From positions 15,598-79,597 of the forward strand of contig JAZSDL010000018.1 of NCBI GenBank assembly GCA_045531135.1: 64,000 nucleotides of DNA, read 5' to 3'. Position numbers and translations under genes: made by a program. The stretch is from Eubacteriales bacterium (GTDB lineage: Bacteria; Bacillota; Clostridia; Oscillospirales; CAG-382). Positions 13,331 through 58,568 of the stretch are shown here, one piece after another (within the stretch, counting starts at the first letter, position 1; every line of letters begins with the position of its first letter). The notes beneath the pieces were generated by a model, which did no database searches, was not told where the DNA came from, and saw only the letters and a list, made by a program, of their open reading frames with translations.

Positions 13331-13500
13331 ACTGTGATCTCCGTTTTCAAATTATAGTTTTTTCATTATATCATACAAATTTATAAATTGCAATATCTTG
13401 TGCGACTTTCGTGCGACAAACACGGGATGAATTTTAGGTACCGTCGGATGTAAAATGCTTTACGTCGGGTGCGGACAAAAAAGCAAAGGAGGTCATCGCA

Positions 13501-13872
13501 ATAGAAAAAACGAAAAAAACATTCAAAACCCGAAAAGAGCTTGAACTCGCGGTCGATGCTTACTTCGAGGAATACCTGAGAGAAAGCAACGAGGTCGCGG
13601 ATATCGAATCGCTTGCCGATTATCTCGGCACAACCAGGGATGAGTTGATGTCGAAGCTGAACGACAAGCGTTTCGGAAGTGTGCTGAGATTGGCAAGAAA
13701 CAGGATAGCGAAAATTAAAAAGCAATTGGCTTTCGGCGGAAAGATACCCGCCGCGGTACTGTCATTCGACCTGAAAAACAATCACGGCTACCGCGATAAG
13801 CCCGAGGACAGCGAGGGTACATCGGGCGAAACGGTTGTATTCAAGGGAAAGACGTCGGATTGGGCTAAATGA
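13501..13872 (+). CDS. phage terminase small subunit (gp3-type), non-canonical ATA start proposed
   Basis: The frame is open from 13438 and AAAGGAGG sits 8 nt before ATA 13501. Conserved blocks KTFKTRKELELAVDAYFEEY, ADIESLADYLGTTRDEL and LKNNHGYRDK. The stop overlaps the TerL ATG (ATGA). Confidence 0.6.
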   Translation: MEKTKKTFKTRKELELAVDAYFEEYLRESNEVADIESLADYLGTTRDELMSKLNDKRFGSVLRLARNRIAKIKKQLAFGGKIPAAVLSFDLKNNHGYRDKPEDSEGTSGETVVFKGKTSDWAK

Positions 13873-15233
13873 ACGAGATCGTAATAGAACCCAACGAAAA
13901 ACAGCGGATCTTTTTCGAGTCGAACGCAAAATACACCGCCTACGGAGGAGCACGTGGCGGCGGAAAAAGCTGGGCGATGAGAATGAAGCTGATATTGCTG
14001 GCACTTAACTACGAGGGAATACAGATACTTCTTTTAAGGCGCACACTTGCCGAGCTGCGCGAGAACCACCTTTTACCGATGATGGCGGTTTTAAAGGGGA
14101 TCGCAAGGTATCACTCGGGCGAAAAGGAGTTCCGTTTCCCAAACGGTTCAAGGATAAAGCTGGGATATTGCGACAGCGAAAACGACGTATTGCAGTTTCA
14201 GGGACAGGCGTATGAGGTCATCGGTTTGGAGGAGGCGACACATTTTACCGAATTTCAGTTTCTTGCCCTTACCGAGAGCAATCGCGCCGCAGGCAATATG
14301 AAAACACGGTTTTCACCGCGTATGTATTTCACCTGCAATCCGGGCGGAGTAGGTCACAGCTGGGTAAAAAGGCGGTTTATCGATCGCGTGTTTTACGGCA
14401 ACGAAAAAAGCGAGGATTATCTTTTTATCAAGTCACTTGTATTTGATAATCGCTACATAATGAAGAACAACCCCGAGTACGTCGATACGCTGATGAACCT
14501 TCCGGAGATACGGCGCAAAGCGATGCTTTACGGAGATTGGGATGCCTTCGAGGGATGCTTTTTCCCCGAATTCAACCCGAGCAGGCATGTCATTTACGGT
14601 GAAGCAAAAATCCCGCAAAACGCGGTGCGCTTCTGCGCGCTCGATTACGGTCTGGATATGACCGCATGCCTTTGGTGCGCGGTCGATACGGACGGCAGCG
14701 TGACAGTCTACCGCGAGCTTTATGAGAAAAATCTGCTGCTTTCCGAGGCGTCGGAGCGAATCACGGCGATGACCGAAGCGGGCGAGAAAATACGGTATAC
14801 CGTCGCCTCGCCTGACCTTTGGAACAGACGGCAGGAAAGCGGCAAGCGCGGCTTTGACATTATGGCGGAGCAGGGATTAAAGCATATGATAAAAGCGGAT
14901 GATTCGCGTATTGCGGGTTGGCGTATAGTGCGCGAGTATTTAAAGTCCGGCGAATCATTCGGCGGAGAACCGAAATTGAAAATATCATACAAATGCACAA
15001 ACCTTATCCGCTGTCTGCCGTTGCTCCGGTTCGACAGTAAGGTGCGTGAGGATGCATCCGACAGTCCGCACGAGATCACTCACGCACCCGAAGCACTGCG
15101 TTATGCGCTTATGTCGCGTCAGCCGAGAGCAAAGCCGATGATGCGAAATTGTTATAAATCGTCGGTCTATACATTCGACGTTCCGAAATCCGAGACCGTC
15201 GGCAGCGAATTTGCTGATTTTATCGGATATTGA
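13869..15233 (+). CDS. phage terminase large subunit
   Basis: Walker A GGARGGGKS, Walker B/coupling VIGLEEATH, and a C-terminal nuclease-like half (ALDYGLD...ASPD). Confidence 0.9.
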   Translation: MNEIVIEPNEKQRIFFESNAKYTAYGGARGGGKSWAMRMKLILLALNYEGIQILLLRRTLAELRENHLLPMMAVLKGIARYHSGEKEFRFPNGSRIKLGYCDSENDVLQFQGQAYEVIGLEEATHFTEFQFLALTESNRAAGNMKTRFSPRMYFTCNPGGVGHSWVKRRFIDRVFYGNEKSEDYLFIKSLVFDNRYIMKNNPEYVDTLMNLPEIRRKAMLYGDWDAFEGCFFPEFNPSRHVIYGEAKIPQNAVRFCALDYGLDMTACLWCAVDTDGSVTVYRELYEKNLLLSEASERITAMTEAGEKIRYTVASPDLWNRRQESGKRGFDIMAEQGLKHMIKADDSRIAGWRIVREYLKSGESFGGEPKLKISYKCTNLIRCLPLLRFDSKVREDASDSPHEITHAPEALRYALMSRQPRAKPMMRNCYKSSVYTFDVPKSETVGSEFADFIGY

Positions 15234-15246
15234 TGAAAGGAGAACG

Positions 15247-16806
15247 ATGAAACAAAAAAACAAACCCTTTACAGAGGAATGGGAGCTCTACGAAAAGGGC
15301 AAGGAGTACAATTACTCTATCAATCTTTATGAAACCGTGAACACAAACGAGCGTTTTTTCAGAGGCGATCAATGGGATAACCTCAATTCAGGTGGTCTTC
15401 CCACACCTGTGTTCAATATCTTTAAGCGCATTATCGGATATTTTACAAGCAGTATTATGCAGACACCGATACGTATGCGCTATTCTCTGACATCCCCAAG
15501 CGGCGGGATCCGATCGGGCGAGGACGGGGCGGGCAACGCCTCTGAAAAGCTCAACGCTATCGTTGATATGCGTTGGGAGAAAAACAAAATGAACGACCTG
15601 CTTGCCTCATCGCTGACCGATGCCGCCGTTTCGGGCGATGCTGTCTGCTACACCTATTGGGATCCCGATATTAAAACGGGACAGGCGTTTACGGGTGATT
15701 TCAAAACCGTGCTTGTCGATAACACCAATGTGTTTTTCGGTGATCCCAATTCGAAAAATGTCCAGAATCAACCCTATATTCTTATCGCCCAACGCGAGAC
15801 CGTATTGTCGCTTATTGCCGAAGCGAAGAAAAACGGTATGAGCGAGGATGCGATAAAGCTTATCACTCCCGATGACGATTATACAACGCAATCGGGCGAT
15901 ATGGCAAAGCACGAGCTCGAGGGCACAAAGTGTATATCGCTTATTAAGCTCTGGAAGGACGAAAAAGGACGCGTGCTGTTTCGCAAGTCGGTAAAAAACA
16001 CGGTCATCAAGGACACAGCCGAAACGATGCTTACTCACTATCCCATTGCATTTTACAATTGGACGTCGGTAAAAAACAGCTGGCACGGAGCTGCGGTGGG
16101 AACCGGACTTATCGATAACCAGATATTCATCAACAAGGGCTTTGCGATGGTTATGAAGCATATGATGGATACGGCGTTTTCCAAGGTCGTGTACGATTCC
16201 ACTCAGCTCGATTCCTGGTCGGACAGAGTCGGCGAGGCAATAGCCGTTAACGGTCCTGTCGAAAACGTCGCAAAGGTGATATCACCCGGCGTGCTGCAAT
16301 CGGGTATGCTTGATGTGCTCCAAATGGCAATTGCCAACACCAAGGAGTTTATGGGTGCCACCGATGCCGCACTCGGCGATGTCGCTCCCAACAACACAAG
16401 CGCGATACTCGCTTTGCAAAACGCTTCTGCCGTACCGCTTGAGAACGTCAAGCGAAATCTCTATCAGTTCGTAGAGGATATCGGACTTATCTGGCTCGAT
16501 TTTATGTTCGCTTATTATGACGATAAGCGTCTGGTTGCCATCCTTAACGACGGAAAAGAGGAGTATAAGCGTTTTTCGCTTTCGCAATTCAAGGACGGTC
16601 TTTTTAATTGCCGTGTGGATGTCGGAGCAAGCAGCTATTGGAGCGAGATAGGCGCATTGAACACCCTCGATTCGCTTTTAAAGCTCGGCAAGATAAGCGT
16701 TGTTCAGTATCTCGAGCGCATCCCCGACGGGCTCATCCCCGATAAAGAAAGGTTGATCAAGGAAATACGCGCATCGGAAGACGCGCAGAAAGGAGAACAA
16801 ATCTAA
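15247..16806 (+). CDS. phage portal protein
   Basis: 519 aa, positioned immediately after TerL. Size and gene order fit a portal, but the family was not verified. Confidence 0.75.
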   Translation: MKQKNKPFTEEWELYEKGKEYNYSINLYETVNTNERFFRGDQWDNLNSGGLPTPVFNIFKRIIGYFTSSIMQTPIRMRYSLTSPSGGIRSGEDGAGNASEKLNAIVDMRWEKNKMNDLLASSLTDAAVSGDAVCYTYWDPDIKTGQAFTGDFKTVLVDNTNVFFGDPNSKNVQNQPYILIAQRETVLSLIAEAKKNGMSEDAIKLITPDDDYTTQSGDMAKHELEGTKCISLIKLWKDEKGRVLFRKSVKNTVIKDTAETMLTHYPIAFYNWTSVKNSWHGAAVGTGLIDNQIFINKGFAMVMKHMMDTAFSKVVYDSTQLDSWSDRVGEAIAVNGPVENVAKVISPGVLQSGMLDVLQMAIANTKEFMGATDAALGDVAPNNTSAILALQNASAVPLENVKRNLYQFVEDIGLIWLDFMFAYYDDKRLVAILNDGKEEYKRFSLSQFKDGLFNCRVDVGASSYWSEIGALNTLDSLLKLGKISVVQYLERIPDGLIPDKERLIKEIRASEDAQKGEQI

Positions 16807-17351
16807 TGAAACGAATCAATAACGAGATGATCCTCGATACCATCTACGATCTTGCAGACAATTGCGGTCTGAGAATCGATGAGTTTTTGTCGCGTGTCGA
16901 GGAGGAATTCGGCGATCAGCCGATAAACACCGAGTCGCTTCCCGAGGACGTTGTAAACGAGCTTAACGCCGCGAGAGCGAGCAAAAAGCAGCAACGCAAG
17001 GATGCTCGCTTGCAGAAGGACCGCGAGGAGATCAATGAGCAGATAAAGCGCTTCCGCGAGATCTTTCCCGATGTGTCCGCCGACACAATTCCCGAATCGG
17101 TCTGGGAGGACGTGCGTAATGGTACCACTCTTGCACATGCATATTCTCTCTATCTTATCGAAAGCGATGCCGAAAACCGCTATGCCTCCGAAATAAACGA
17201 GCGCAACGGCAACGCCGTCGCCAAGGTAAGCGGCGAAGCCGCGGCAGAGCCCGCCTTTACAAAGGAGCAGGTCGAGCGTATGTCGGGCAAGGAAGTCAAG
17301 CATAACTACAAAAATATCTTAAACGCCATGAAAAATTGGAAGTACAACTAA
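16806..17351 (+). CDS. phage scaffolding protein (putative)
   Basis: 181 aa, highly charged and predicted helical, lying between portal and capsid genes. Its start shares 1 nt with the portal stop (TAATG). Confidence 0.6.
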   Translation: MKRINNEMILDTIYDLADNCGLRIDEFLSRVEEEFGDQPINTESLPEDVVNELNAARASKKQQRKDARLQKDREEINEQIKRFREIFPDVSADTIPESVWEDVRNGTTLAHAYSLYLIESDAENRYASEINERNGNAVAKVSGEAAAEPAFTKEQVERMSGKEVKHNYKNILNAMKNWKYN

Positions 17352-17369
17352 AGAAAGGAAATAACGAAA

Positions 17370-18194
17370 ATGGCAAATTACAACAGTATCGAAAAAATCA
17401 TTTCCGCAGAGATATTGCGCACAAACGAGGATAACCTTCTTGCAAATACCGTCTGCAACACCTCGTTCTCGGGTGATATCAAGGATAGAGGTGACAGTGT
17501 GACCTTTATCGGTCTTAACGATCCCACCGTGTACGATTACGAGGGAAGCATCACCTACGAGGATATCGACGATTCCTCGCTCACACTGCTTATCGATCAG
17601 GATAAAGCATTCTCATTTAAGATCAAGGACATCGAGGCGCTTCGCTCCTCTATCGGGCTCGAGGATAGCCAGACCAAGCGTGCAAGCTATCTACTCAAGA
17701 ATGAGGTCGATGCATACGTGTTCTCGCTCTATGACGAGGCGGGAAGTATGATGACCGCGGTTGAAGCAACCCCCGAGAACGTTCTTCAGACCGTCGCCTC
17801 CATGAAGCAGAAGCTCGAGGAGGCAAATGTACCCGACGGCAGAACCTGGATCGTCGTTCCGCCCTTTATCAAGACCAAGCTTATGCTTGCGGGCATCAAG
17901 TTCCAGATCAACAACGGCGTTAACGGTACCGGTGCGGTCGCATTTACCGATGAGCTTGGCTGTGATATCTACGTATCCAATCAGCTTGCGACCGAGGGAG
18001 GCAACACTATGATGCTTGCCGGCTCCTATTCGGCAATCGCCTATGCCGAGCAGGTGCTAGAAACTCAGGTGCTCGACCGTCTTGAAAATTCGTTCGATAA
18101 GGCGGTAAGAGGCCGTCTTGTATTCGGCGCCAAGGTAATCAAGCCCGCCGAGCTTGTGTGCTGTCCCGTTTCCGACGGCGCAAATGCAATATAA
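17370..18194 (+). CDS. major capsid protein, P22-coat-like / N4-gp56-like family (putative)
   Basis: 274 aa. The N-terminal pattern IISAEILRTNEDNLLANTV...GDSVTF resembles P22-coat-type proteins (from memory). Position after the scaffold gene supports the call. Confidence 0.7.
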   Translation: MANYNSIEKIISAEILRTNEDNLLANTVCNTSFSGDIKDRGDSVTFIGLNDPTVYDYEGSITYEDIDDSSLTLLIDQDKAFSFKIKDIEALRSSIGLEDSQTKRASYLLKNEVDAYVFSLYDEAGSMMTAVEATPENVLQTVASMKQKLEEANVPDGRTWIVVPPFIKTKLMLAGIKFQINNGVNGTGAVAFTDELGCDIYVSNQLATEGGNTMMLAGSYSAIAYAEQVLETQVLDRLENSFDKAVRGRLVFGAKVIKPAELVCCPVSDGANAI

Positions 18195-18216
18195 AAGAAA
18201 AGGAGAAATATAAAAT

Positions 18217-18603
18217 ATGGCAGAACAGTTGATTAACAATTATACCTCAAAAGGTCTTTTTAATGCGGTCAAGGTGGCACAGGCGCCGATCAAATCCAAC
18301 GAGTCGAGCGCGCAGTTCTATACCGACCTTACCGATTGCAAGGACAGCGTGACTATGGTCGTTTTCATCCCTGCAATAATGGGCGGTAATTTCCACCTCA
18401 CCTTTAAGTCCTCGGAGGGCGGTAAGGATAAAGTGGTGAAGCTCTTTTCCGAAGAAACCAACGTTGTGCGCTTTACAACCAAGGGTATCAAGGACGAAAA
18501 CGGCTTCGGTCACTTTGAGATCAGCGTTGACAACGGTATGAGCATTACCGAAAGCAACATAAGCGTTCTTTGCATCAAAAGCATCGACGTTGTAAATAAC
18601 TGA
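18217..18603 (+). CDS. hypothetical virion protein (decoration/head-associated?)
   Basis: 128-aa beta-rich ORF directly after the capsid gene with a good RBS (AGGAGA). Confidence 0.6.
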   Translation: MAEQLINNYTSKGLFNAVKVAQAPIKSNESSAQFYTDLTDCKDSVTMVVFIPAIMGGNFHLTFKSSEGGKDKVVKLFSEETNVVRFTTKGIKDENGFGHFEISVDNGMSITESNISVLCIKSIDVVNN

Positions 18604-18620
18604 TCAAAACAGTTCACTCG

Positions 18621-18641
18621 GGGCGGACATCACGTCCGCCC
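18621..18641 (+). terminator. GC-rich hairpin after the capsid module (possible partial terminator/attenuator)
   Basis: GGGCGGAC-ATCAC-GTCCGCCC followed by TGTATTT. Confidence 0.4.
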
Positions 18642-18664
18642 TGTATTTAATAAGGAGGTATGAA

Positions 18665-19045
18665 ATGAAAGCAATAAAGCTTTTTACTACGGCGCTCGAC
18701 CTGATCGGCATATATAACGACGGCGAAAAGCTTCCTGCCGACACCGAGGATCTAAAGCAACGCTCGGTATCTCTGATAAATCTTTTGCTTGCCGAAAACG
18801 CCGTGCTTGATGGCAGCTTGCGCAAAACCGATGCCGAGATAAAATACATCCAACAGCTCGAGGACGAGATTTTGTGCTCGGATATCATAGTCAATTCGGT
18901 CCTTCCGTATGGGCTTGCGCGTCTGCTTGTGCTCGGCGAGGACGATGCGATTTCCAACGAGCTTTACCGAATGTATGTTACCTCGCAGGAAAACGCAAAG
19001 CGCTTTGTAAAGGCGATCACGCATCCTATCGAGGAGGTGTATTGA
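18665..19045 (+). CDS. head-tail adaptor/connector-like protein (putative)
   Basis: 126-aa helical ORF in the position typical of head-completion proteins. Its stop overlaps the next ATG. Confidence 0.5.
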   Translation: MKAIKLFTTALDLIGIYNDGEKLPADTEDLKQRSVSLINLLLAENAVLDGSLRKTDAEIKYIQQLEDEILCSDIIVNSVLPYGLARLLVLGEDDAISNELYRMYVTSQENAKRFVKAITHPIEEVY

Positions 19046-20760
19046 TGAAGATAACCTCCAACAAGGGCTTTGCAGGGATAGATGAAAGGATAGGACTTCA
19101 GAACACGGTCTCTGCGGCAGCGGTGTCGGATAATTTCTTTATTACGTCCGACGGCTCGCTTGCAAAGCGCCCTGGCGAAAAGGTCGTGCATCAGTTTGCG
19201 GGCGATATCAGCGGAATATGGAACGGCGATATTTCGGGCGAAACAATGCTTGTTGTGGCAAGCGCGGGCGAGCTCTACCGACTTCATCCGTCGGAAACGG
19301 GTGAGATACCTCAGCACATCGGCAGTATCGGCGGCGGACGGTGTATTATGTTCGAGTTCAACGGTCGTCTTTATATAAAAACGCCGGTAAGCTACCATAA
19401 GTACGATGGCGAAGCTCTTGAACTCGTCGAGGGATATATTCCCACCGTAGCAATAAACTGCAGCTGCGACGGTGGCGGCGAGCTGTACGAGCAGATCAAC
19501 CTTATAAGCGATTATCGCAGGGTACTTATTTCGCCCGATGGCGAAAAAACGCTCTATAAGCTGATTGAAAACGGCATCGAAAGCATCTATTCGGTCCTTT
19601 TAAACGGAAAGGATATGAGCAGCGGCTACCATTTTGATGCCGAAAAAAGCGAGATAAGCTTCATCAATCCGCCTGCCGAGGGTATCAATACACTCGAGAT
19701 AGTATATCGAAAGCCAACGTCTGACAGCGATAAGGAACGGATAATGAAATGCACCCGAATAATGCTTTTCGGCGGCAATTCCGATGGCAGAGCGTTCTTT
19801 TGGGGCAATCCCGATCTGCCCAACTACCGTTTTCACAGCGATCTTGCAAACGGTGTTCCGAGCGTAGAGTATTTTCCTGTCAACGCATATACCGTTATAG
19901 GCAGAAGCGCGATAAACTGTATAGTTCAGCAATACGACCGTCAGCTTATATTTACAAAGGACGAGGCGTTTTATTCCTACAGCGAGCTACGCACCGATTC
20001 GCTCGGAAACAGCTATTCGAGCTTTCCCGTGTTCGGTCTCAACGGCAGCAAGGGATGCCTTTTTGAAAGCGACGGCTGTGTTGTCGATAACCGCCCCGTA
20101 ACGCTTTGCGGCGACGGAATAAATCTTTGGGAATCAACCTCGGTTTTAAACGAGAAGAATGCGGTATGCATTTCGGGTCCGATACAAAAATCGCTTTCAA
20201 ACGAAATGAGCAACGGGCTCATCTCACCAAAGATATTCGATTTTCAGGCAAACCGCGAGCTGTTTTTTGTAAACGGTACAAACGCATATATCTATAATTA
20301 CGGCAACGGAAATTGGTACAGATATACCGATTTCCCGTGTGAGTGCTATGCAATAAACGGCGAAAAGCTGTTTCTCGCACAAAACAGTACTCTCTATGTT
20401 TTAAGTAATTCCAACGAGCCCATGCCGCTTCAGACTTGTGTATGGAAAAGCGTGCCGATAAGCTGCGGCAATGCCGACGGTATGTGCGATATTACCTCGT
20501 TTTGTGCCGATGTGTATGCAAAGGGCGAGGTTACGTTAAAGATCGCATTTGAAAGCGAAAACCGTAAAAGGACCGAAAGGTTTTTGAAATTCCCAAAGGA
20601 TTTCGATAGCAGCTGCCGTGTTGCTTTCCGCCCCGCCGTAAAAAGAACCATGCCGTTCTCGCTCGAGATATCGGTATACGGCTCGGGTATATGTAATCTG
20701 AACGGAGCGTGCATAGAAGCAAGGAAAAAAGAAAGGAGCAGAAGATTTGGCATTTTATGA
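19045..20760 (+). CDS. large virion protein (tail/nozzle or receptor-binding candidate)
   Basis: 571 aa from ATG 19045 (GAGGAGG 7 nt upstream). The ORF-track N-terminal extension from 18874 overlaps the adaptor gene and is rejected. Beta-rich with 18 Cys. Confidence 0.6.
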   Translation: MKITSNKGFAGIDERIGLQNTVSAAAVSDNFFITSDGSLAKRPGEKVVHQFAGDISGIWNGDISGETMLVVASAGELYRLHPSETGEIPQHIGSIGGGRCIMFEFNGRLYIKTPVSYHKYDGEALELVEGYIPTVAINCSCDGGGELYEQINLISDYRRVLISPDGEKTLYKLIENGIESIYSVLLNGKDMSSGYHFDAEKSEISFINPPAEGINTLEIVYRKPTSDSDKERIMKCTRIMLFGGNSDGRAFFWGNPDLPNYRFHSDLANGVPSVEYFPVNAYTVIGRSAINCIVQQYDRQLIFTKDEAFYSYSELRTDSLGNSYSSFPVFGLNGSKGCLFESDGCVVDNRPVTLCGDGINLWESTSVLNEKNAVCISGPIQKSLSNEMSNGLISPKIFDFQANRELFFVNGTNAYIYNYGNGNWYRYTDFPCECYAINGEKLFLAQNSTLYVLSNSNEPMPLQTCVWKSVPISCGNADGMCDITSFCADVYAKGEVTLKIAFESENRKRTERFLKFPKDFDSSCRVAFRPAVKRTMPFSLEISVYGSGICNLNGACIEARKKERSRRFGIL

Positions 20761-22051
20761 TACGGTCGAGAGCATAAAACAAGCACTCGACGGATATTCC
20801 GAGGAGGAATCACGTCTTAAGGCGGTCTACGAAAAAGCCGCCGAAGACAATCAAAAATATTTGGATCAGGCAAAGGAATCGCTGGAAAATAATTACCGCC
20901 ACGAACGTAATACCGTCTATTCGGACAATGCCCGCGACGAGAGGAACGTTATGGCATTTCTTGCCGAGCGCGGACTCGGCTTTTCGGGCGAGGCGGCGCA
21001 GGCAAAGCTTAATTCAAGCGTTGTACTTAACAATCGGTTTGCAGATCTTGCATCGCAAAAATCATCAAAGGAGCTCGAGCTCGAAAATAATTACGCCGAT
21101 AAAAATCATACGCTTTCGCTCGATTATCTCGATAAGCTTTCGGCTTTGAACAGCGATAAAAACAATCTGTCGCTTGATCTTGCCGGGCTTGAGCAAAAAA
21201 ATGAGCAGAGCGAGGCAGACAGAGCATGGGAAAGAGAAAAGCTCGAGTCCCTGCAGAAAGCCGAAGCCGAGGCGCTGGCGCAGAAAAACGCTCAATACGA
21301 GGCGGACAGAGCATGGGAAAGAGAGAAGCTCGAATCCCGGCAGAAAGCCGAAGCCGAGGCACTTGATAAAAAGCTAAAGGCAGAGAAAGATATGCTTGAT
21401 GCCGAGCTTTATGCAAAATATTACCGTGAAACGCAAAACAATGCGGGCTCGGGCTCGGGTAACAGCGGCTCGGGCGGAGCAGAGGGAACTCTCGAGGATT
21501 TTATGAACGGATATCTGCCCGATATCAAGCCGAAGGAGCTTGCAAAGCTTATGGTAAATAACGCCACCGACGGCAATTTTATCGAGGACGAAAGGGACGA
21601 ATATCTTATCAATAAGTATCTTGTCGATATGATCGATTCCTACCGTATAGATAACGATTACCTCACCGAGCTCGTGTTTATGCTTAAAGCATACGGATAC
21701 AAGGAGACAAATCTTGCAAATATGCGAAAAAGCGTAATATCTTACGATGCAAAGGAATATTATGACCAAAGATACCGAAGCTACTTCGAGCGCTATCTGC
21801 AGTCGGGCATCGACGAGGCAAACGCGAGCGCAAACGCAAGAGTTGCCGCAAAATTCGATCGGTTTGAGTATATTCGACAAAAGATCGGCTCGTACAGCGA
21901 GTTTTACGAGATATGCGTTAAAAACGGTATTCCCGAAAGCGATATAAATGCATACGCCGCAAGATATGTCTGGGGCAGCTCGAGCACGCCTCAGGGCTTG
22001 GGCGGTGTCGCAAATTCAAGCGCGGGCACAAAGGTCAATATGCTTTATTAG
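20747..22051 (+). CDS. coiled-coil virion protein with internal 29-aa tandem duplication
   Basis: 434 aa with a TTG start 7 nt after AAAGGAG. EADRAWEREKLESxQKAEAEAL occurs twice. Gly/Ser linker GSGSGNSGSGG. Confidence 0.6.
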   Translation: MAFYDTVESIKQALDGYSEEESRLKAVYEKAAEDNQKYLDQAKESLENNYRHERNTVYSDNARDERNVMAFLAERGLGFSGEAAQAKLNSSVVLNNRFADLASQKSSKELELENNYADKNHTLSLDYLDKLSALNSDKNNLSLDLAGLEQKNEQSEADRAWEREKLESLQKAEAEALAQKNAQYEADRAWEREKLESRQKAEAEALDKKLKAEKDMLDAELYAKYYRETQNNAGSGSGNSGSGGAEGTLEDFMNGYLPDIKPKELAKLMVNNATDGNFIEDERDEYLINKYLVDMIDSYRIDNDYLTELVFMLKAYGYKETNLANMRKSVISYDAKEYYDQRYRSYFERYLQSGIDEANASANARVAAKFDRFEYIRQKIGSYSEFYEICVKNGIPESDINAYAARYVWGSSSTPQGLGGVANSSAGTKVNMLY

Positions 22052-22063
22052 GAGGCGAATATT

Positions 22064-22375
22064 ATGGATTTTACAAGCTATATCGAGCCGGAGCTGTATA
22101 TAACGGTACCCGTGCTTTATATTCTCGGTATCATGCTCAAAAAAAGTGTTATCAATGACAAATGGATACCTATTATACTCGGCGGTATGGGCATAGCGCT
22201 TGTCAGCGCGTACAAGTTAACTGCGTATCTCCCAACGGATATCGGAGGGATTTTTTCACTTGCCTTCGCCGGTGTAACACAGGGCATACTATGCGCGAGT
22301 GCAAGCGTTTACGCAAATAATCTGTTAAAGCAGATGGGTGCAAAGGATGAAGACACAGATAAAAAAGATACTTAA
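22064..22375 (+). CDS. holin-like small membrane protein
   Basis: 103 aa with three hydrophobic segments and a charged C-terminal tail (KDEDTDKKDT). Confidence 0.55.
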   Translation: MDFTSYIEPELYITVPVLYILGIMLKKSVINDKWIPIILGGMGIALVSAYKLTAYLPTDIGGIFSLAFAGVTQGILCASASVYANNLLKQMGAKDEDTDKKDT

Positions 22376-22426
22376 CGGTATCGTCTCGCTGTTTGCCGAT
22401 TATCTTTTTGATATCTTTTATCTTTC

Positions 22427-22756
22427 GTGAGTATTTTGGCTTTTTTAGAGGAAGTATTGCCGATAATTCTGTCCTCGTGCGGATTAACGGGCGGAATCTT
22501 CTCGGCGGTAATCTTCTTCGCAATAAAACGCGCAAAGCTTGATGCCGAGATCAAACGAAAGGAACGTCTTAAATTAGAGATAATGCGTCTCGAGGGCGAG
22601 GAAAAAATGTCGAAATTGATGTTTGCATTAATAAGATACACCCGTACCTACGAAAACGAGTCCGAGCTCGACGAGGCGGAAAGGGCATACACCGAGTATC
22701 TGCTTAATTGCTCAAAGCTGAAAAACGAGATAATAAGTAATCATACGTCGGGATAA
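22427..22756 (+). CDS. small membrane protein with cytoplasmic coiled coil (lysis accessory?)
   Basis: 109 aa with a GTG start and an N-terminal TM segment followed by a charged helix. It is the last gene of the cluster. Confidence 0.5.
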   Translation: MSILAFLEEVLPIILSSCGLTGGIFSAVIFFAIKRAKLDAEIKRKERLKLEIMRLEGEEKMSKLMFALIRYTRTYENESELDEAERAYTEYLLNCSKLKNEIISNHTSG

Positions 22757-22757
22757 C

Positions 22758-22799
22758 AAAAAAACGCAGTGCAGGGACTTGCTCCCTCACTGCGTTTTT
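22758..22799. terminator. bidirectional terminator between the phage-like cluster and hemW
   Basis: AAAAACGCAGTG...CACTGCGTTTTT with A/T runs on both sides. Confidence 0.7.
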
Positions 22800-22803
22800 A
22801 TAT

Positions 22804-38674: not shown

Positions 38675-39994
38675 CTATTCGTTTCCGATAATGGTCTTCA
38701 AAATAACCTTGTGTTGCTTGGGCGGATTATCTCCGATAGAGACCGCTTTGAACAGGTATTCCATACCCAACTGTGCGCGCTCGAGCGATTTTGCCTGAAG
38801 CGTTGCCAACGCTTCGCCTTCTTCGATTCTGTCACCGATGCGCTTGTTGAGAATAATACCTGCCGAATGGTCGATCCTTGCGCCCATAACCTCGCGTCCT
38901 GCTCCGAGGACCGCGGCGGCCTTGCCGACCTTCATGGCATCTATCTTTGTTATGTATCCGCTCTTTTCGGCAACGAGCATTGCTGTAACGTTGCTTTCTT
39001 CAAACAGGGATGTGTCATAGATATACCGCTTGTCGCCGCCGAGATGTTCAACAAGCTCGGCAAGCTTATCAAGCGCACTGCCGTCGTAGATTGTTTCCTC
39101 GGCAATGGCAACACATTCCTCATAGGTGCCTGCGTTTGCGATAAAGAGCATGTTTGCCGCAATTGCAATGCTTAGTTCGGTCAGACGCTCGTCGCCTCTG
39201 CCCTCAAGAACACGGATCGCCTCGATAAGCTCAACGCTGTTTCCCACAGCCGAGCCCAACGGACAGGACATATCGGTGATAAGCGCAACGGTTTTGCGTT
39301 GCTCTCTTGCGCCGATGCGCACCATCAGACGCGCCAATTCCTCCGCATCTCTTAAGGTCTTGCAAAAGGAACCGCTGCCGCATTTGACGTCAAGCACTAT
39401 ACATTCGTTACCCGATGCGAGCTTCTTGCTCATTACGCTTGCCGCAATAAGCGGTATGCAGTTTGCAGTGCCCGTAACGTCGCGCATTGCCGAAAGTATG
39501 CTGTCGGCAGGCGCCAAGCGCTTGCTTTGTCCCGCAATGCAGAATCCGAGCTCGGAAACCGTATTTTCAAACTCGTCGGCAGAGATTTCGGTGTTTACAC
39601 CGGCACATGCCTCAAGCTTGTCAAGCGTTCCGCCTGTAAATCCAAGTCCGCGGCCCGCCATTTTCGGAACGTAAATGCCCTTGTCGGCGGCGGCAACTAT
39701 CGGACCGACAATAAGCGATACCTTGTCTCCGACACCGCCGGTGGAATGTTTATCAACCTTTTTGCCCTTGACCTTCGGAAGCGCGTTCGTTTCGCCGCTG
39801 TCGGCAAGACATTCGGTGAGTGTTATCGTTTCCTCCTCGGTCATTCCCTTAAACCAGATCGCCATCAAAAGTGCAGAGATTTGGTAATCGGGAATAGATC
39901 CGTCGGTAACTCCCTTTACAAAAAACGCAATTTCTTCTTCGTTCAATTCACGTCCGTCCTGCTTTTTTGTAATAATTTCCTGCATTTTAAGCAT
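38675..39994 (-). CDS. pdp: pyrimidine-nucleoside (thymidine) phosphorylase, copy 1
   Basis: DKHSTGGVGDK, GRGLGFTGGTLDKLE, SIMSKKLA. 439 aa. Confidence 0.92.
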   Translation of the reverse strand: MLKMQEIITKKQDGRELNEEEIAFFVKGVTDGSIPDYQISALLMAIWFKGMTEEETITLTECLADSGETNALPKVKGKKVDKHSTGGVGDKVSLIVGPIVAAADKGIYVPKMAGRGLGFTGGTLDKLEACAGVNTEISADEFENTVSELGFCIAGQSKRLAPADSILSAMRDVTGTANCIPLIAASVMSKKLASGNECIVLDVKCGSGSFCKTLRDAEELARLMVRIGAREQRKTVALITDMSCPLGSAVGNSVELIEAIRVLEGRGDERLTELSIAIAANMLFIANAGTYEECVAIAEETIYDGSALDKLAELVEHLGGDKRYIYDTSLFEESNVTAMLVAEKSGYITKIDAMKVGKAAAVLGAGREVMGARIDHSAGIILNKRIGDRIEEGEALATLQAKSLERAQLGMEYLFKAVSIGDNPPKQHKVILKTIIGNE

Positions 39995-41168
39995 TGATCT
40001 CGCCTCCTTTTAACAGCTTCAAAAAGCTTGTTCCGTAAAAATCGTTGTCTATATCAAAGTTTTCGCAAACGGTTTTTGCGATACAGGTGTAGCTGTCAAA
40101 CCCGCCTGCATCAATACCGATAAGTCCCTTGCAATAAGCAAGCAACGGTATGTTTTCTCTTGTATGGTCGGTGCCGGCAAACATCGGATCACAGCCGTGA
40201 TCGGCGGTGATGATTATAAGATCGTCATCGCGCATTTTATCAATAAATTTGCCCAGAGTGCTGTCAAAATGCATCAACGCATCCGCATAGCCGTTCACGT
40301 CGTTGCGGTGACCGTATACCGAGTCAAAATCGACCAGATTCACAAAGCAAAGACCGTCAAAATCGCTTTCCAGCTTTGCAAGAAGCAAATCCTCGCCCTC
40401 GTTGTTGTTCTTGGTCGGGTTGCTTTCGGTCACGCCCTGCGCGGCAAAAATATCGTTTATCTTTCCTATCGAAATAACGTCGTATCCGTAATTCTTCAAA
40501 AGGTCGAGCATGGTCGCTCCATAAGGCGCGAGCGAATAATCGTGCCTTCCTCCCGTGCGGTAATAACCGCCGCTGTTACTCGAAAAAGGCCTTGCAATAA
40601 CGCGCCCTACGGCGTGCTCGCCCTTTAATATTCTGCGCGCGCTCTTGCACAGGGCGTACAGCTTATCAAGCGGAATAATATCCTCGTGCGCCGCTATCTG
40701 AAAAACACTGTCTGCCGAGGTGTATACGATCGGCTTGCCTGTTTTTATATGCTCGTCGCCGTAGTCCTTTATTACCTCTGTGCCGGAGTAGGGGAGATTG
40801 CAAAGTATCTCAACCCCGTTTTCCCTGCAAAATTCGTCAATGATCTCGCTCGGAAAACCGTTCGGATATGTCGGCAACGGCGATTCGGAAATAAGCCCCG
40901 CTATTTCCCAATGACCTACCGTTGTGTCCTTGCCGTTGCTCTTTTCCTCGGCGTAGCCGTACAGACCTGTCGGCTTTTCGCATCCGAAATCGGTCAATTC
41001 GGCACGCTTTATGTTAAATAAACCCAATTTCGTAAGATTCGGCAGGTAAGGCGAGGCGGTCATAACGCTCTTTAATGTGTGTGCACCGAGATCGCCGAAT
41101 CTGTCCGCATCGACAGCGTGACCTATTCCCAAGCTGTCCAGCACTACCAAAAACACTCTTTTGAACAT
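39987..41168 (-). CDS. deoB: phosphopentomutase
   Basis: VVLDSLGIG, NLVDFD..YGHRND, TADHGCDP. 393 aa. Confidence 0.93.
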   Translation of the reverse strand: MFKRVFLVVLDSLGIGHAVDADRFGDLGAHTLKSVMTASPYLPNLTKLGLFNIKRAELTDFGCEKPTGLYGYAEEKSNGKDTTVGHWEIAGLISESPLPTYPNGFPSEIIDEFCRENGVEILCNLPYSGTEVIKDYGDEHIKTGKPIVYTSADSVFQIAAHEDIIPLDKLYALCKSARRILKGEHAVGRVIARPFSSNSGGYYRTGGRHDYSLAPYGATMLDLLKNYGYDVISIGKINDIFAAQGVTESNPTKNNNEGEDLLLAKLESDFDGLCFVNLVDFDSVYGHRNDVNGYADALMHFDSTLGKFIDKMRDDDLIIITADHGCDPMFAGTDHTRENIPLLAYCKGLIGIDAGGFDSYTCIAKTVCENFDIDNDFYGTSFLKLLKGGEINA

Positions 41169-52744: not shown

Positions 52745-53500
52745 ATGACAGAGCTTGCAAAAAAAATCGCAAACGATGCTTCGATCCTCGGAATAAATAA
52801 AGGCGATACGGTGCTCGTTCACTCGTCTCTCCGATCTCTCGGCGGCGCAGCTCCGCAGGAGGTCATCGATGGGCTTTTGAGCGCATTGGGTGATGAGGGA
52901 ACCTTGGTTTTTCCTACGCTTAGCTATTTAAACTGCAATCCGTCCAAGCCGATATTTGATTATTACGAAACAAAATCAAACGTGGGCGCCCTGCCTGAGT
53001 ATTTCAGAACCGAGGTAAAGGGCGTGCTGCGCAGTATGAGTCCCACACATTCCTGTGCGGCGGTCGGTAAAAATGCCGAGTATATCACCTCGGGACATAT
53101 TCTGGATAAAACCCCCTGCGGCGAGAATTCGCCGTTCCGCCGTTTGATGCAGCTCGGCGGAAAGATATTGTTCCTCGGTTGTGGTATGCGGCCAAACACC
53201 TCTATGCACGCTGTCGAGGAATTAAGCGAGCCCGATTATCTTTACGGTGATGAGTTTATGTACGATTTCACCGATAAGGACGGCAAAAAATATCAAGCAC
53301 CATGCCGTGCACACGGCTTTAAGGGCGTTGCCCAACGGTACGAACGGCTTGCCGATCTGCTAACGGGCGATGAATTGAGAATAGGCAATATACTCTCGGC
53401 AGAATGTCATCTTGTTTACACTCCGGCGATGTGGGAAAAAGCAGATAAAAAATACCGCGAGACACCGCACTATTTTATTGACCTGATCGAACAGAACTAA
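52745..53500 (+). CDS. AAC(3)-family N-acetyltransferase
   Basis: GDTVLVHSSLRSLG...GTLVFPT...SMHAVEE matches the Antibiotic_NAT fold pattern. Confidence 0.8.
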   Translation: MTELAKKIANDASILGINKGDTVLVHSSLRSLGGAAPQEVIDGLLSALGDEGTLVFPTLSYLNCNPSKPIFDYYETKSNVGALPEYFRTEVKGVLRSMSPTHSCAAVGKNAEYITSGHILDKTPCGENSPFRRLMQLGGKILFLGCGMRPNTSMHAVEELSEPDYLYGDEFMYDFTDKDGKKYQAPCRAHGFKGVAQRYERLADLLTGDELRIGNILSAECHLVYTPAMWEKADKKYRETPHYFIDLIEQN

Positions 53501-53518
53501 TATGATAAGGAACAGAGA

Positions 53519-54646
53519 GTGATTCGATTGAAGAACCGCGAACTTTACCCGATTTTTAATACGATCATCAAGGATTTTAATTTAAAAGGCACACTTGTGT
53601 CTATTTCGTCACTCAGCAGCGGCAATATAAACGATACTTATCTTGCGGCAACACTTATGGACGATGCTATCAGACAGTATATCGTCCAGCGTATAAATCA
53701 CAACGTTTTTCCCGAGCCGGATAAGGTTGCGAGCAACGTAAGCAAGGTCACCGACCATATAGAGAAAAAGCTGCGTGAGGCAAACGTTTTGGATATAAGA
53801 AGACGTGTTTTGCGTTATTACCGCAAAAATGACGGCAGCTTTTATCATCGTACCGAGGACGGTAACTATTGGCGCGTGCTTTCGTGTGTATATAATGCCG
53901 AAAGTATCGATTCCGCCGATATAAACTATCTTCGTTCAACAGGCCTTGCCTTCGGTGAGTTTCAGCGGCACCTGCTCGATTTTCCCGCAGACTCGCTTTA
54001 TGAGACCATACCCGATTTCCATAATACAAAAAAACGCTATGCCGATCTTAAGCAGGCGGCGGATTACGATATCTGCAAACGGCTTGAAAATGTCCGCGAG
54101 GAATATGAGTATCTTATTTCGATGGAAAAAGAGGCATGCCTGCTCTGCGATCTTTACGAACAGGGCGAATTAAGCACCCGTGTTGTGCATAACGATACAA
54201 AGTGTAATAACGTAATGTTCGATTCCTATACCGGCGAGCATCTTGCCGTCATCGATCTTGATACCGTTATGCCCGGTCTTGTCGCGTATGATTTTGGCGA
54301 TGCGGTCCGTTTTGCCGCTAACCCTGCGGGCGAGGATTGCGACGATCCCTCAAAGGTCTACCTTGATCTCGATTATTATTCGGCATTTGCCGAGGGCTTT
54401 GTAGAGGAAACAAAAACCTCGCTTACCAAGCGTGAGATCGAAACCCTCCCCGACGGAGTGCTTGCCATCACGCTTGAGCTTGCCTCGCGCTTCCTTGCCG
54501 ATTATTTAAACGGTGACGTTTATTTCAAGTGCAAAAAGCCGAACCATAACCTGATAAGAACCCGCGCTCAGATAGCACTTGCAAAGGATATTTTCGGCAA
54601 AATGCCCGAACTGAGAAGCAGATTGCGGTCAATATCTGCCGATTAA
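53519..54646 (+). CDS. APH/NahK-like sugar or aminoglycoside phosphotransferase family kinase
   Basis: SGNINDTY, QRINHNVF, catalytic HNDTKCNNVMF, and DLDTVMPG. GTG start. Confidence 0.75.
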   Translation: MIRLKNRELYPIFNTIIKDFNLKGTLVSISSLSSGNINDTYLAATLMDDAIRQYIVQRINHNVFPEPDKVASNVSKVTDHIEKKLREANVLDIRRRVLRYYRKNDGSFYHRTEDGNYWRVLSCVYNAESIDSADINYLRSTGLAFGEFQRHLLDFPADSLYETIPDFHNTKKRYADLKQAADYDICKRLENVREEYEYLISMEKEACLLCDLYEQGELSTRVVHNDTKCNNVMFDSYTGEHLAVIDLDTVMPGLVAYDFGDAVRFAANPAGEDCDDPSKVYLDLDYYSAFAEGFVEETKTSLTKREIETLPDGVLAITLELASRFLADYLNGDVYFKCKKPNHNLIRTRAQIALAKDIFGKMPELRSRLRSISAD

Positions 54647-56484: not shown

Positions 56485-56882
56485 TGAACAAACAAGCTCT
56501 TTGCGAATCTGCAATAAAGGCATCCGATAATTCGTATTCACGTTATTCGGGCTTTTGTGTCGGCGCGGCTTTGCTTTGTAATGACGGAAGCATTTACAGC
56601 GGCTGTAATATCGAAAATTCTTCATTTACACCAACAGTCTGTGCCGAGCGTGTTGCGTTTTTTAAGGCAATAAGCGATGGCAAGCACGGCTTTTCGGCTA
56701 TTGCCGTTGCGGGCGGCAAAAAGGGAAGTGTCGGTATTGATGAAACCACCCCCTGCGGAGTCTGCCTTCAGGTAATGAGCGAGTTCTGCGATCCCGATTT
56801 CAAGGTGCTTCTTGTAAAAGAGGGAGGATATACGGAATACAGTTTAAAAGACCTGTTGCCTAAATCATTTAAATTGGAGTGA
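56481..56882 (+). CDS. cdd: cytidine deaminase
   Basis: CAERVA and PCGVCLQ zinc motifs. 133 aa. Confidence 0.93.
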   Translation: MMNKQALCESAIKASDNSYSRYSGFCVGAALLCNDGSIYSGCNIENSSFTPTVCAERVAFFKAISDGKHGFSAIAVAGGKKGSVGIDETTPCGVCLQVMSEFCDPDFKVLLVKEGGYTEYSLKDLLPKSFKLE

Positions 56883-56887
56883 TATTT

Positions 56888-58189
56888 ATGCGTATTCAGG
56901 ATATAATCGATAAAAAACGGTACAATAAACCGCTTACCGATAATGAAATATATTTCTTTGTAAACGGATATGCAAAGGGCGAAATACCGGATTATCAGAT
57001 ATCACCGCTTTTAATGGCGATCTGCATCAACGGTATGAACGATAAAGAGACCTCGTGCCTTACTCGCGCCATGGCGGAATCGGGCAGTATCAATGACCTC
57101 GGCATGCTTCATAACACCGTCGATAAACATTCGACAGGCGGCGTCGGTGATAAGACCACGCTTATTGTGGCACCTATCGTCGCGGCGCTCGGCTGTACCG
57201 TCGCAAAGCTTTCGGGCAGAGCGCTCGGACATACCGGCGGCACGCTCGATAAGCTCGAGTCGATCCCCGGCTTTGATACAACCGTTTCGGGCGAGGAGTT
57301 TATAAACATATCAAAAAAATGCGGTATATGTGTTTCGGGTGCGGGAAAAAACATCGCTCCCGCCGATAAAGAGCTGTATGCCCTGCGTGACGTTACGTCT
57401 ACGGTTCGCAGTATTCCGCTTATTGCCTCGAGCATTATGAGCAAAAAGCTCGCAGGCGGTGCCGAATCGATCGTTCTCGATGTAAAAACGGGCAGCGGCG
57501 CTTTTATGCAAACGCTCTCAGAGGCACGCGAGCTGGCAGAATGTATGGTGTCGATCGGCAAAAGCACGGGCAAAAGGATGTCTGCCGTGCTTACAAATAT
57601 GTCGCATCCTTTGGGCTATTGTGTCGGCAACTCGGTTGAGGTTGCCGAGGCGGTTGCGTTTTTAAAATACGGTAAGGGCGAAAATGATCTTACCTCCGTA
57701 TGTAAAGCTCTTGCGACCGAAATGGTGCGCCTTGCAAAATCGGTTTCAAGAGAAGAGGCGAGCTGTCTGGTCGAAACGGTTATCAATAGCGGCAAAGCAT
57801 ACGATAAATTTGTCGAGTGGATCGATCTGCAAAAGGGCGATGTGTCTGTGCTTGATGACCTAAAAAAATTCGCATCCGCCGGGTATATGTCTGAAATCAG
57901 GGCAGAAAAGGATGGATATCTCCATTGTATAAACGCCGCAGGTGTAGGAGAAGCCGCAATAGCTCTCGGTGTCGGCAGAAGCAAAAAGGACGATAAGATC
58001 GACCATACCGCAGGCATCGTCTTTAAAAAGACCGAAAACGATTTTGTTAAAAAGGGCGATGTGATAGCCGTAACCCAATCGTCAACGGTTGCGGATCATT
58101 CGTCTGTACATAGCGCGATCATGAAAAACCTCGTTCTGTCGGAAAAAGCAGATGCTGATTTTTCTGCCGTGTATGAGATAATCGAATAA
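56888..58189 (+). CDS. pdp: pyrimidine-nucleoside phosphorylase, copy 2
   Basis: DKHSTGGVGDK, GRALGHTGGTLDKLE, SIMSKKLA. A paralogue of 38675-39994. Confidence 0.92.
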   Translation: MRIQDIIDKKRYNKPLTDNEIYFFVNGYAKGEIPDYQISPLLMAICINGMNDKETSCLTRAMAESGSINDLGMLHNTVDKHSTGGVGDKTTLIVAPIVAALGCTVAKLSGRALGHTGGTLDKLESIPGFDTTVSGEEFINISKKCGICVSGAGKNIAPADKELYALRDVTSTVRSIPLIASSIMSKKLAGGAESIVLDVKTGSGAFMQTLSEARELAECMVSIGKSTGKRMSAVLTNMSHPLGYCVGNSVEVAEAVAFLKYGKGENDLTSVCKALATEMVRLAKSVSREEASCLVETVINSGKAYDKFVEWIDLQKGDVSVLDDLKKFASAGYMSEIRAEKDGYLHCINAAGVGEAAIALGVGRSKKDDKIDHTAGIVFKKTENDFVKKGDVIAVTQSSTVADHSSVHSAIMKNLVLSEKADADFSAVYEIIE

Positions 58190-58229
58190 AACGAAAAGAG
58201 AGGCGCCTGCTTGCCTCTCTTTTGTGTGT

Positions 58230-58568
58230 TTACGTTGTTGATACCAAATATACCTCGCAGGGAACTCTTCTGCGCTTTGCGTAGTTTATCGTAAACTCGG
58301 TTCCGCTCGATTCGCCGTCCCAAAACGCGATGACCAGATCAGCATTATCGACTATAAGCTTGTCGCGGATAAGCGGCGCGCTTCTGCCGTAGAGCTCGTA
58401 ATCGGGGTATATTATCATTTTCTCAATGCCCATTTTATCTGCATATCTCTCGGCAAGCGTGTCTACACCGATAGCACCGCCCGATATGATAAGAGTTGTA
58501 TCGGGAGGGATGCGCCTTGCTATATCGGCGTTGCTTATGCTTCGAGAACCAACTACGGCAACCTTCAT
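58230..58568 (-). CDS. SLOG-superfamily (DUF2493/DprA-like Rossmann) protein
   Basis: MKVAVVGSRS...ISGGAIGVDTLAERYA...VIAFWDGESSGT. 112 aa. Family assigned from memory. Confidence 0.7.
   Translation of the reverse strand: MKVAVVGSRSISNADIARRIPPDTTLIISGGAIGVDTLAERYADKMGIEKMIIYPDYELYGRSAPLIRDKLIVDNADLVIAFWDGESSGTEFTINYAKRRRVPCEVYLVSTT

Follow-up and report, generated by a model that had tools for sequence, protein, structure and literature searches.

Does a compact block of phage morphogenesis genes in a clostridial chromosome represent the surviving half of a decayed prophage, or a particle that is kept under the control of its host? This question is raised by a 64,000-nucleotide stretch (hereafter the window) of contig JAZSDL010000018.1 from an Eubacteriales bacterium (assembly GCA_045531135.1), in which, as an original prediction made from the sequence had described and open reading frame (ORF) calls bear out, 11 co-oriented and tightly coupled ORFs occupy the plus strand at 13495-22756. 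That prediction had favoured a domesticated, host-controlled podovirus-like module over a decayed prophage, and both the synteny and the ratios of nonsynonymous to synonymous substitution (dN/dS) reported here support this preference. On balance, we regard the block as probably a domesticated, podovirus-derived operon for a particle resembling a gene transfer agent (GTA), inherited vertically in uncultured Clostridia of the gut, rumen and sediment.

Distribution, synteny and selection

Relatives were sought by scanning one genome per GTDB species, and the loci were compared in the best 80 of at least 537 species genomes. The portal gene is carried by at least 537 GTDB species-representative genomes, and the best 80 loci are found in metagenome-assembled genomes (MAGs) of gut, rumen and sediment origin, labelled Eubacteriales, Oscillospiraceae, 'Ruminococcus sp.' or Clostridia. 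The portal protein has 3641 homologues, of which the best 120 listed are 63-84% identical and belong to MAGs of Clostridia, in many cases on contigs 100-240 kb long. The whole portal clade falls into one 50%-identity cluster, with a score of 925 bits against 569 for the next representative among the 1.84 billion cluster representatives searched.

Synteny was followed by tblastn with the window proteins, and counts were restricted to loci long enough for the comparison. The same 11 genes occur in the same order in essentially every such locus among the 80 species-level genomes; all eight easily detectable genes are found in 47 of 52 loci, and in relatives with gene calls the block likewise comprises eleven genes, of nearly the same sizes, with only host genes at the borders. 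The cluster lies directly 3' of lepA-hemW, and co-oriented with it, in 30 of the 55 loci with enough upstream sequence. This site is used across the whole 59-82% range of portal identity, and one distant relative has the wider synteny of the window, mtnA-DAGK-secDF-lepA-hemW. Furthermore, in 25 taxa, the portal, capsid, TerL, nozzle and scaffold proteins diverge between pairs of loci in step with lepA (Pearson correlation of distances 0.87-0.94, Mantel p<=0.0005).

Selection was estimated from 14 species pairs with unsaturated dS. The dN/dS of the cluster genes is far below 1 (0.036-0.18; Table 1) and resembles that of the host genes beside them, as the original prediction had proposed for a block retained by selection. 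Vertical inheritance over many species together with purifying selection on the structural genes is what is generally expected of a GTA, and the same can be said of the presence of chromosomal head, packaging and tail genes without replication, integration or lysogeny modules, which was found in the window and in two relatives with Pfam-annotated flanks.

These data bear directly on the proposal that the block derives from a decaying prophage, of which it would be the remaining half, and is functionless now. The many phage modules missing from the cluster and the non-canonical terS start of the window genome (see below) would agree with such a decay. On the other hand, the 11 ORFs are intact with lengths kept over dozens of species, dN/dS is far below 1, the regulatory elements are conserved, and no relative shows the full prophage at this site that would have pointed to a recent deletion; nor do the relatives' loci examined hold mobility, replication or immunity genes. 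The sporadic distribution, pseudogenes and relaxed selection of a decaying remnant are likewise not what is seen. We reject this proposal, which now retains only a trace of probability, because of the synteny, the fixed site, the co-divergence with lepA, the low dN/dS and the conserved cis elements. At the level of sequence comparison, the results rule out both a remnant of recent deletion and a relic evolving neutrally, and show that the block has been held vertically, over the long term, by selection.

Gene content and regulatory elements

Judged from family matches and gene positions, the operon encodes a complete DNA-packaging head made up of a small terminase (TerS), a large terminase (TerL), a portal, a scaffold and a small, 274-residue capsid protein. 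The motif-based names given earlier to TerS, TerL, the portal and the major capsid protein are backed by Pfam and PHROG profile matches, and the two motifs cited for TerL, GGARGGGKS (Walker A) and VIGLEEATH, are both present. TerS matches Pfam GP3_package over nearly its full length (5.5e-10) as well as phrog_606; its orthologues are 116-154 residues long and keep an invariant motif, ADIESLADYLGxTR, whose ADIESLADYLG part looks like the N-terminal helix-turn-helix (HTH) of small terminases. TerL matches phrog_979 at 2e-50 and, weakly, the PBSX terminase family of NCBIfam, with orthologues 62-82% identical, and the portal matches P22_portal at 1e-23 and phrog_156 at 5e-38. The major capsid protein, 66-92% identical across species, matches Phage_capsid_4 (2e-8) and phrog_267 (1.7e-39), and no NCBIfam family, N4-gp56 included. 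The acidic 181-residue protein is assigned as a scaffold by its position and conservation only; it is kept in all loci at 30-69% identity and has no Prp match and no other confident family match in Pfam, NCBIfam or PHROGs. Its C-terminal 42 residues match the counterpart in MT836592.1 (L151), a related cluster described below.

The protein that follows the capsid, p128, may decorate the head or form part of its surface. It is detected by tblastn in only 13 of 80 loci (24-42% identity), an ORF of similar size always fills the slot, and no family or PDB match was obtained from Pfam, PHROGs (permissive thresholds included) or a profile search against PDB sequences. Together with p434 and p109 it forms the set of products with no relative of defined function in Pfam, PHROGs or NCBIfam.

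The original prediction had described a beta-rich protein of 571 residues. The AlphaFold2 model of this protein (p571), built on a 46-sequence alignment, is confident and indeed all-beta, with a predicted local distance difference test score (pLDDT) of 89.3; the description has to be made more specific, since the model identifies p571 as a podovirus tail nozzle. In a Foldseek comparison with the PDB, the best 28 matches were without exception podophage chains of the tail nozzle or hub, among them Pa223, cyanophage A4, SU10, P22 gp10 (8eap_D, E=1.8e-15), T7 gp12 and Sf6. Structure prediction was the sole source of this identity, as a p571 profile retrieved nothing from PDB sequences and the match to phrog_3287, a virion structural protein, is weak. 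With p571 as a nozzle, the cluster encodes a short tail and not a head alone.

The gene of p126 is always directly upstream of the nozzle gene and coupled to it, and phage-size IMG/VR contigs have a homologue (~28% identity) at the corresponding place. Thus placed, p126 is probably the head-to-tail adaptor. No match was found for it by a profile against PDB sequences, a Pfam scan of all family members, or PHROGs at permissive thresholds; hhalign gave a probability of 13.6% against an SU10_adaptor-like protein, and a single-sequence AlphaFold model (pLDDT 57.6) produced meaningless Foldseek matches. The coiled-coil protein p434 is the most divergent product (23-47% identity, 343-557 residues across loci), with a weak match to TolA (TIGR02794, 0.0023, NCBIfam) and none to PHROGs at permissive thresholds; a role as a fibre, inside the particle or in ejection is possible.

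Both of the small membrane proteins noted earlier are present, and one of them can now be named as a holin, with matches to Phage_holin_5_2 (1.4e-19) and phrog_1129 (holin, 1e-18) and conservation in 54 loci. The other, p109, is kept downstream of the holin in 45 loci and has no family match in Pfam, NCBIfam or PHROGs at permissive thresholds; it is a possible lysis accessory protein.

Table 1. Features of the proposed particle operon and dN/dS of its genes and of flanking host genes
Feature	Position	Strand	Basis	dN/dS
Conserved promoter region	13400-13474	+	architecture common to terS upstream regions	
Small terminase (TerS), ~123 aa	13501-13872	+	GP3_package; probable non-canonical start	0.085
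Large terminase (TerL), 454 aa	13869-15233	+	Terminase_3, Terminase_6N	0.065
Portal protein, 520 aa	15244-16806	+	P22_portal, SU10_portal	0.068
Scaffolding-like acidic helical protein, 181 aa	16806-17351	+	position between portal and capsid genes	0.12
Major capsid protein, 274 aa	17370-18194	+	Phage_capsid_4, phrog_267	0.036 (lowest)
Beta-rich, fast-diverging protein, 128 aa (p128)	18217-18603	+	similar-size ORF always in slot	
GC-rich hairpin between head and tail modules	18619-18643	+	10-bp stem, 8 GC pairs	
Helical protein, 126 aa (p126), head-to-tail adaptor candidate	18665-19045	+	position and coupling to nozzle gene	0.11
Predicted tail nozzle (hub) protein, 571 aa (p571)	19045-20760	+	AlphaFold2 model and Foldseek	0.15
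Coiled-coil TolA-like protein, 434 aa (p434), with Gly/Ser linker and helical C-terminal domain	20747-22051	+	weak TolA match	0.18 (highest)
Holin, 103 aa	22064-22375	+	Phage_holin_5_2, phrog_1129	0.16
Protein of 109 aa (p109), N-terminal membrane segment and coiled coil	22427-22756	+	conserved 3' of holin	0.12
Bidirectional intrinsic terminator, common to convergent hemW	22764-22795	.	hairpin with A-run and T-run	
lepA (flanking host gene)				0.023
hemW (flanking host gene)				0.16
secD and secF (flanking host genes)				0.08-0.11

The couplings between the genes are as they had been described. The terS stop overlaps the terL start in the ATGA at 13869-13872, base 16806 is common to the portal stop and the scaffold start, base 19045 is common to the p126 stop and the p571 start, and p571 and p434 overlap by 14 nt at 20747-20760; no ORF is interrupted, all 11 being intact with their lengths kept across dozens of species. 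The start of the cluster, formerly placed at 13381, has to be moved, as 13381-13494 is non-coding and consists of the promoter and the 5' untranslated region.

Upstream of terS the promoter carries three boxes phased by 11 nt (GCGAC at 13402, GCGAC at 13413 and GGGAT at 13424), the last of which forms the -35-position element GGGATGAA (13424-13431). A 19-nt spacer, the -10 element TAAAAT (13451-13456) and a conserved CGTCGGGTGCGG (13463-13474) follow. In the family as a whole there are 2-4 direct repeats of 11-nt period, of GTGGGATTTTC, TGAGAT or GCGAC types, with GGGATGAA as the last one at -35, then a spacer of 18 nt (19 in the window), a -10 TAnAAT, CGTC(rr)ATGCGA about 7 nt further on, and the ribosome-binding site (RBS). 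The strict pattern (GGGATGAA, ~18 nt, TAnAAT, ~7 nt, CGTC) precedes terS in 37 of 64 loci; about 43 of its 50 matches in 1.27 Mb of related loci lie upstream of terS, with about 10 matches expected by chance, and the window holds one further match, consistent with chance. The promoter does not resemble the sigma-70 -35 consensus, and phased 11-nt repeats over the -35 would be typical of winged-helix response-regulator activators. By analogy, this architecture suggests a dedicated host activator; there is no regulator gene within the cluster.

Two hairpins complete the cis elements. Between the head and tail modules, a hairpin with a perfect stem and at least 5 GC pairs recurs in 40 of the 58 species loci compared; its sequence varies between lineages while its position is kept, and a T-run is often present 3' of it. 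It is a probable intrinsic terminator or attenuator, and its placement suggests that expression of the tail and lysis genes is lowered relative to that of the head genes. At the 3' end of the operon the terminator hairpin is formed by ACGCAGTG...CACTGCGT, with an A-run and a T-run on its flanks.

The copy in the window shows two peculiarities. The first concerns terS, whose frame is open from 13438 and has its first ATG, GTG or TTG only at 13645, while the N-terminus encoded before that point is conserved. Orthologues mostly start with ATG at the same spacing from the RBS; in the window there is an ATA at 13501 where they have ATG, 8 nt after a strong RBS, AAAGGAGG (13485-13492). The start is probably this ATA, or else the ATC at 13495. 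The absence of a canonical start suggests that TerS is translated very weakly or has lost its function in this lineage, unless the sequence itself is in error. A relative (L009) has ACG at the terS start position, which with the ATA of the window would make two independent near-cognate starts in related species.

The second peculiarity is an inversion of the block with respect to both flanks. In the closest informative relatives (L007 and L010) the order is lepA, hemW, cluster (in the same direction), DUF4855 and esterase. In the window, hemW converges on the 3' end of the operon and DUF4855 diverges from its 5' end; the promoter and the terminator moved along with the inverted block, and no inverted repeats were found at the block boundaries. 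The inversion could be a lineage-specific event or an assembly error.

Both flanks agree with the earlier description. On the left there is a divergent host lipoprotein gene, of DUF4855/F5_F8 type and on the minus strand, with dockerin-bearing esterases also present on this side; on the right is the convergent series hemW-lepA-secF-secD, which shares the bidirectional terminator of the operon. Also in agreement, profile scans of the cluster and of the other scanned window ORFs gave no integrase, repressor, replication, long-tail or peptidoglycan hydrolase gene. Within the cluster, 0 of 11 products matched an integrase, repressor, replication protein, tail tube, sheath, tape measure or peptidoglycan hydrolase in Pfam, PHROGs and NCBIfam. 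A repeat search found no flanking repeats around the block, Rfam no riboswitch or known RNA in or adjoining the cluster, and megablast of the block no nucleotide similarity to 50,697 deposited phage records. The GC content of the block (~0.48) matches that of the window. No second phage-like locus was present among the ORFs scanned in the 64-kb window, the remainder being housekeeping (glg operon, PNPase, L10 leader, tRNAs).

Elsewhere in the window, three observations may be recorded. An Rfam match to the Gut-1 small RNA (53 bits, gathering threshold 50) lies at 1893-1967, directly after a cluster of seven tRNA genes. At 52745-54646, directly 3' of the glycogen operon, an aminoglycoside 3-N-acetyltransferase-family gene (Antibiotic_NAT, 3e-48) adjoins an APH-family phosphotransferase gene. 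A pyrimidine-nucleoside phosphorylase gene occurs twice, at 38675-41168 (minus strand) and 56879-60648 (plus strand), each time near a Metalloenzyme-superfamily gene (phosphopentomutase or phosphoglycerate-mutase-like), in what looks like a duplicated nucleoside-salvage pair.

Relation to phages, satellites and described particles

Among cultured phages, the portal is closest (31% identity) to that of the ~40-kb Bacillus megaterium podophages Page, Pony, Pookie and Pascal, and the capsid is about 31% similar to proteins annotated as 'P22 coat protein' in C. perfringens phages. Podophage contigs of 37-55 kb in IMG/VR resemble the cluster at 37-48% identity in portal and TerL, ~28% in the adaptor-position protein and ~30% in the nozzle, and they are likely to represent the ancestral type. 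These contigs and the Page-like phages have homologues of its portal, TerL, adaptor-position protein and nozzle, and their head-to-tail gene order is that of the cluster. However, they are full-size and four times longer, whereas the cluster is a chromosomally fixed 9.4-kb subset; at least one such contig (L144) encodes an amidase-type lysin, and the portal clade of the window is separate from their portals and tight.

Shorter records are of another kind. Several IMG/VR entries (L081-L087, L094, L135) listed as viral contigs are pieces of this chromosomal operon, and a sister cluster, MT836592.1 (L151), was deposited as 'Bacteriophage sp.'; the latter is a 9.6-kb record from human faeces with the gene order of the window cluster. 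In all probability the IMG/VR copies and L151 represent GTA-like loci of their hosts and not genomes of phages. In the cultured Acidaminobacterium chupaoyuni (L152, CP176394.1, 1929669-1950505) a related cluster of TerL, scaffold-like, capsid, adaptor and nozzle genes is split by host genes for a type III pantothenate kinase and an ECF transporter component; no portal gene is called between TerL and the capsid, and a PAS/GerE regulator and a DUF722 protein are encoded upstream. It is possibly a further variant that has been domesticated or is decaying.

The existence of such viral entries also bears on whether the block is a mobile mini-element, that is, a capsid-forming satellite or minimal phage which packages its own ~9.4-kb DNA and relies on a helper or the host for replication and integration. 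In its favour, several copies are listed as viral contigs in IMG/VR, TerS keeps its HTH-like motif, and the length is near the fragment sizes reported for small GTA-like capsids of the gut (PMC12946183). The IMG/VR copies are nevertheless short fragments of the same chromosomal block, one of which (L083) shows a DUF4855-like host gene alongside; no integrase, replication gene or flanking repeat was found, and the chromosomal site is fixed across deep divergence with lepA co-diverging. The hallmarks of capsid-forming phage-inducible chromosomal islands and similar satellites (integrase, primase or rep gene, regulatory module, att sites) were likewise not found at this fixed site. We therefore consider a mini-element improbable.

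The closest described system to the favoured GTA-like particle is FpGTA of Faecalibacterium prausnitzii, a member of the Oscillospirales, which its authors introduced as the first GTA of podovirus-like type and also the first known from commensals of the gut (PMC12946183, Nat Commun 2026). Its operon I, located at 2536737-2546346 of CP030777, comprises ten ORFs in ~10 kb, for TerS, TerL, portal, a Prp-annotated gene, an N4-gp56-annotated capsid, small proteins, a nozzle matched to 8eap and a TolA-annotated protein, and a second operon of 5.5 kb located 125 kb away provides fibres, holin and endolysin (PMC12946183). Experiments showed particles of 40 nm that look tail-less and contain ~8.5-9 kb of DNA, in which the TolA-annotated protein is abundant, and the metagenomic reads from virus-like particles are random Faecalibacterium host fragments of the same ~8.5-9 kb (PMC12946183). 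The original prediction was aware of no described GTA of this architecture in Clostridia, a statement that FpGTA has overtaken; besides the FpGTA kind of that work, no other description of this operon family was found in the literature searched.

The likeness between the two systems is drawn from the annotations of FpGTA and its accession order (RCH50844-RCH50853), not from aligned sequences. At this level, both show the order TerS, TerL, portal, scaffold position, capsid, small proteins, nozzle and TolA-like protein, both nozzles match the same solved structure (P22 gp10 in PDB 8eap), and both are chromosomal operons of ~10 kb with a podovirus-like origin and no replication or integration genes in the operon. 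The differences are several. Neither the N4-gp56 label of the FpGTA capsid nor the Prp label at its scaffold position, which are the annotations of RCH50849 and RCH50850, was found in the window proteins, label comparison being a weak test. The FpGTA TerS is reported without a DNA-binding domain, whereas that of the window appears as a GP3_package member with an HTH-like motif. The FpGTA holin is in the second operon, whereas that of the window is inside the operon and no second locus occurs within the window. Lastly, FpGTA I apparently does not adjoin lepA, its accession numbers being ~200 apart in a draft assembly.

Two records were considered as possible copies of FpGTA itself and set aside. 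The abundant high-GC IMG/VR group represented by L144 has a phage-size contig, an amidase and no N4-gp56 or Prp match. The capsid of L151 (MT836592.1) is nearest to a chromosomal protein of Acidaminobacterium chupaoyuni (74%) and not to any Faecalibacterium protein.

The block is an operon of the FpGTA kind with a very wide distribution, a kind first described in Faecalibacterium in 2024-2026. By analogy with FpGTA, a GTA function of the operon family appears reasonably probable.

Among the better-studied particles, those of RcGTA type in Alphaproteobacteria share with the cluster the phage-derived head, packaging and tail genes without replication or integration, the vertical inheritance in a large clade under purifying selection, an apparently host-type, activator-dependent promoter, and, it appears, the encoding of at least some lysis functions elsewhere. 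RcGTA is siphovirus-like, with an HK97-type head and protease, a tail tube and a tape measure, and has no detectable sequence relationship to the cluster, which is podovirus-like and has a scaffold and a holin in the operon. PBSX and its relatives in Bacillus are, like the cluster, chromosomally fixed phage-like elements of Firmicutes. PBSX packages host DNA in small heads that are released by lysis, as is proposed for the cluster; it is myovirus-like, with a contractile tail, ~28 kb, a repressor and late-gene regulators, none of which is present in the window cluster.

Proposed function and significance

Thus arranged, the operon can be given a working scheme, in which we infer activation by a regulator, packaging of random host DNA, release of particles and delivery of DNA. 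A host activator would bind the 11-nt phased repeats over the -35 and switch the operon on, probably in a subpopulation of cells. The head genes would be expressed in excess, with the hairpin after the head module attenuating transcription into the tail and lysis genes. The terminase would then load small capsids by the headful with chromosomal DNA, each stretch of which falls short of the 9.4 kb of the operon, and the holin, with an endolysin encoded elsewhere, would free particles able to deliver this DNA to related cells.

Several points weigh against a GTA-like particle. The family is known from genes alone and all carriers are MAGs; no endolysin was found in the window and no receptor-binding protein was identified. 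TerS is of P22 gp3 type with an HTH-like motif, while the TerS proteins of RcGTA and FpGTA are reported without a DNA-binding domain, and packaging might thus be sequence-directed. In addition, the lepA correlation uses a physically linked gene, and the window copy may be poorly expressed owing to its terS without a canonical start codon.

The same evidence has to be weighed for a domesticated particle with a role other than transfer, either PBSX-like killing or defence, or programmed lysis and DNA release, in which the packaged DNA would be incidental and never delivered. The conservation, the selection and the host-type promoter fit such a particle equally well, the operon has its own holin while no receptor-binding protein was identified, and the authors of FpGTA leave the same possibility open for their system (PMC12946183). 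Against it stands the strong purifying selection on terminase, portal and nozzle, from which it can be argued that both packaging and the ejection channel matter. We consider a non-transfer role rather unlikely, though less so than a mini-element.

A GTA-like particle could also account for observations in other taxa. GTA-type packaging without an assigned locus was reported in several other Oscillospirales and Christensenellales, among them 'UBA1206 sp000433115', with a read-length peak at 6.9 kb (PMC12946183, Supplementary Data 1). The MAG 'Clostridiales bacterium UBA1206' (L070) carries a cluster of the window type; the link is a shared genus name and not the same genome, which is a further point against the favoured reading. 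Circumstantial as it is, this link is the one empirical hint at what the family does. Were the packaging capacity near 7 kb, the operon, at 9.4 kb, would be too long for its own capsids. We tentatively put forward, as a conjecture with somewhat less than even chances, that the operon is the locus behind the small-fragment packaging in non-Faecalibacterium Oscillospirales such as UBA1206. If so, it would be an anciently domesticated, order-wide podovirus-type GTA, either independent of FpGTA or the deep ancestor that both share, with a promoter of response-regulator type and an attenuator between head and tail genes.

Gene transfer agents have been well characterised almost solely in Alphaproteobacteria. 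Virus-prediction pipelines file fragments of the present chromosomal operon as viral contigs, and virome catalogues are inflated as a result. The conserved promoter motif can be used to find the regulator and auxiliary loci such as fibre or endolysin genes. The family offers a clear evolutionary signature of domestication, and it gives a sequence-defined candidate GTA locus in more than 500 mostly uncultured species of the gut and rumen.

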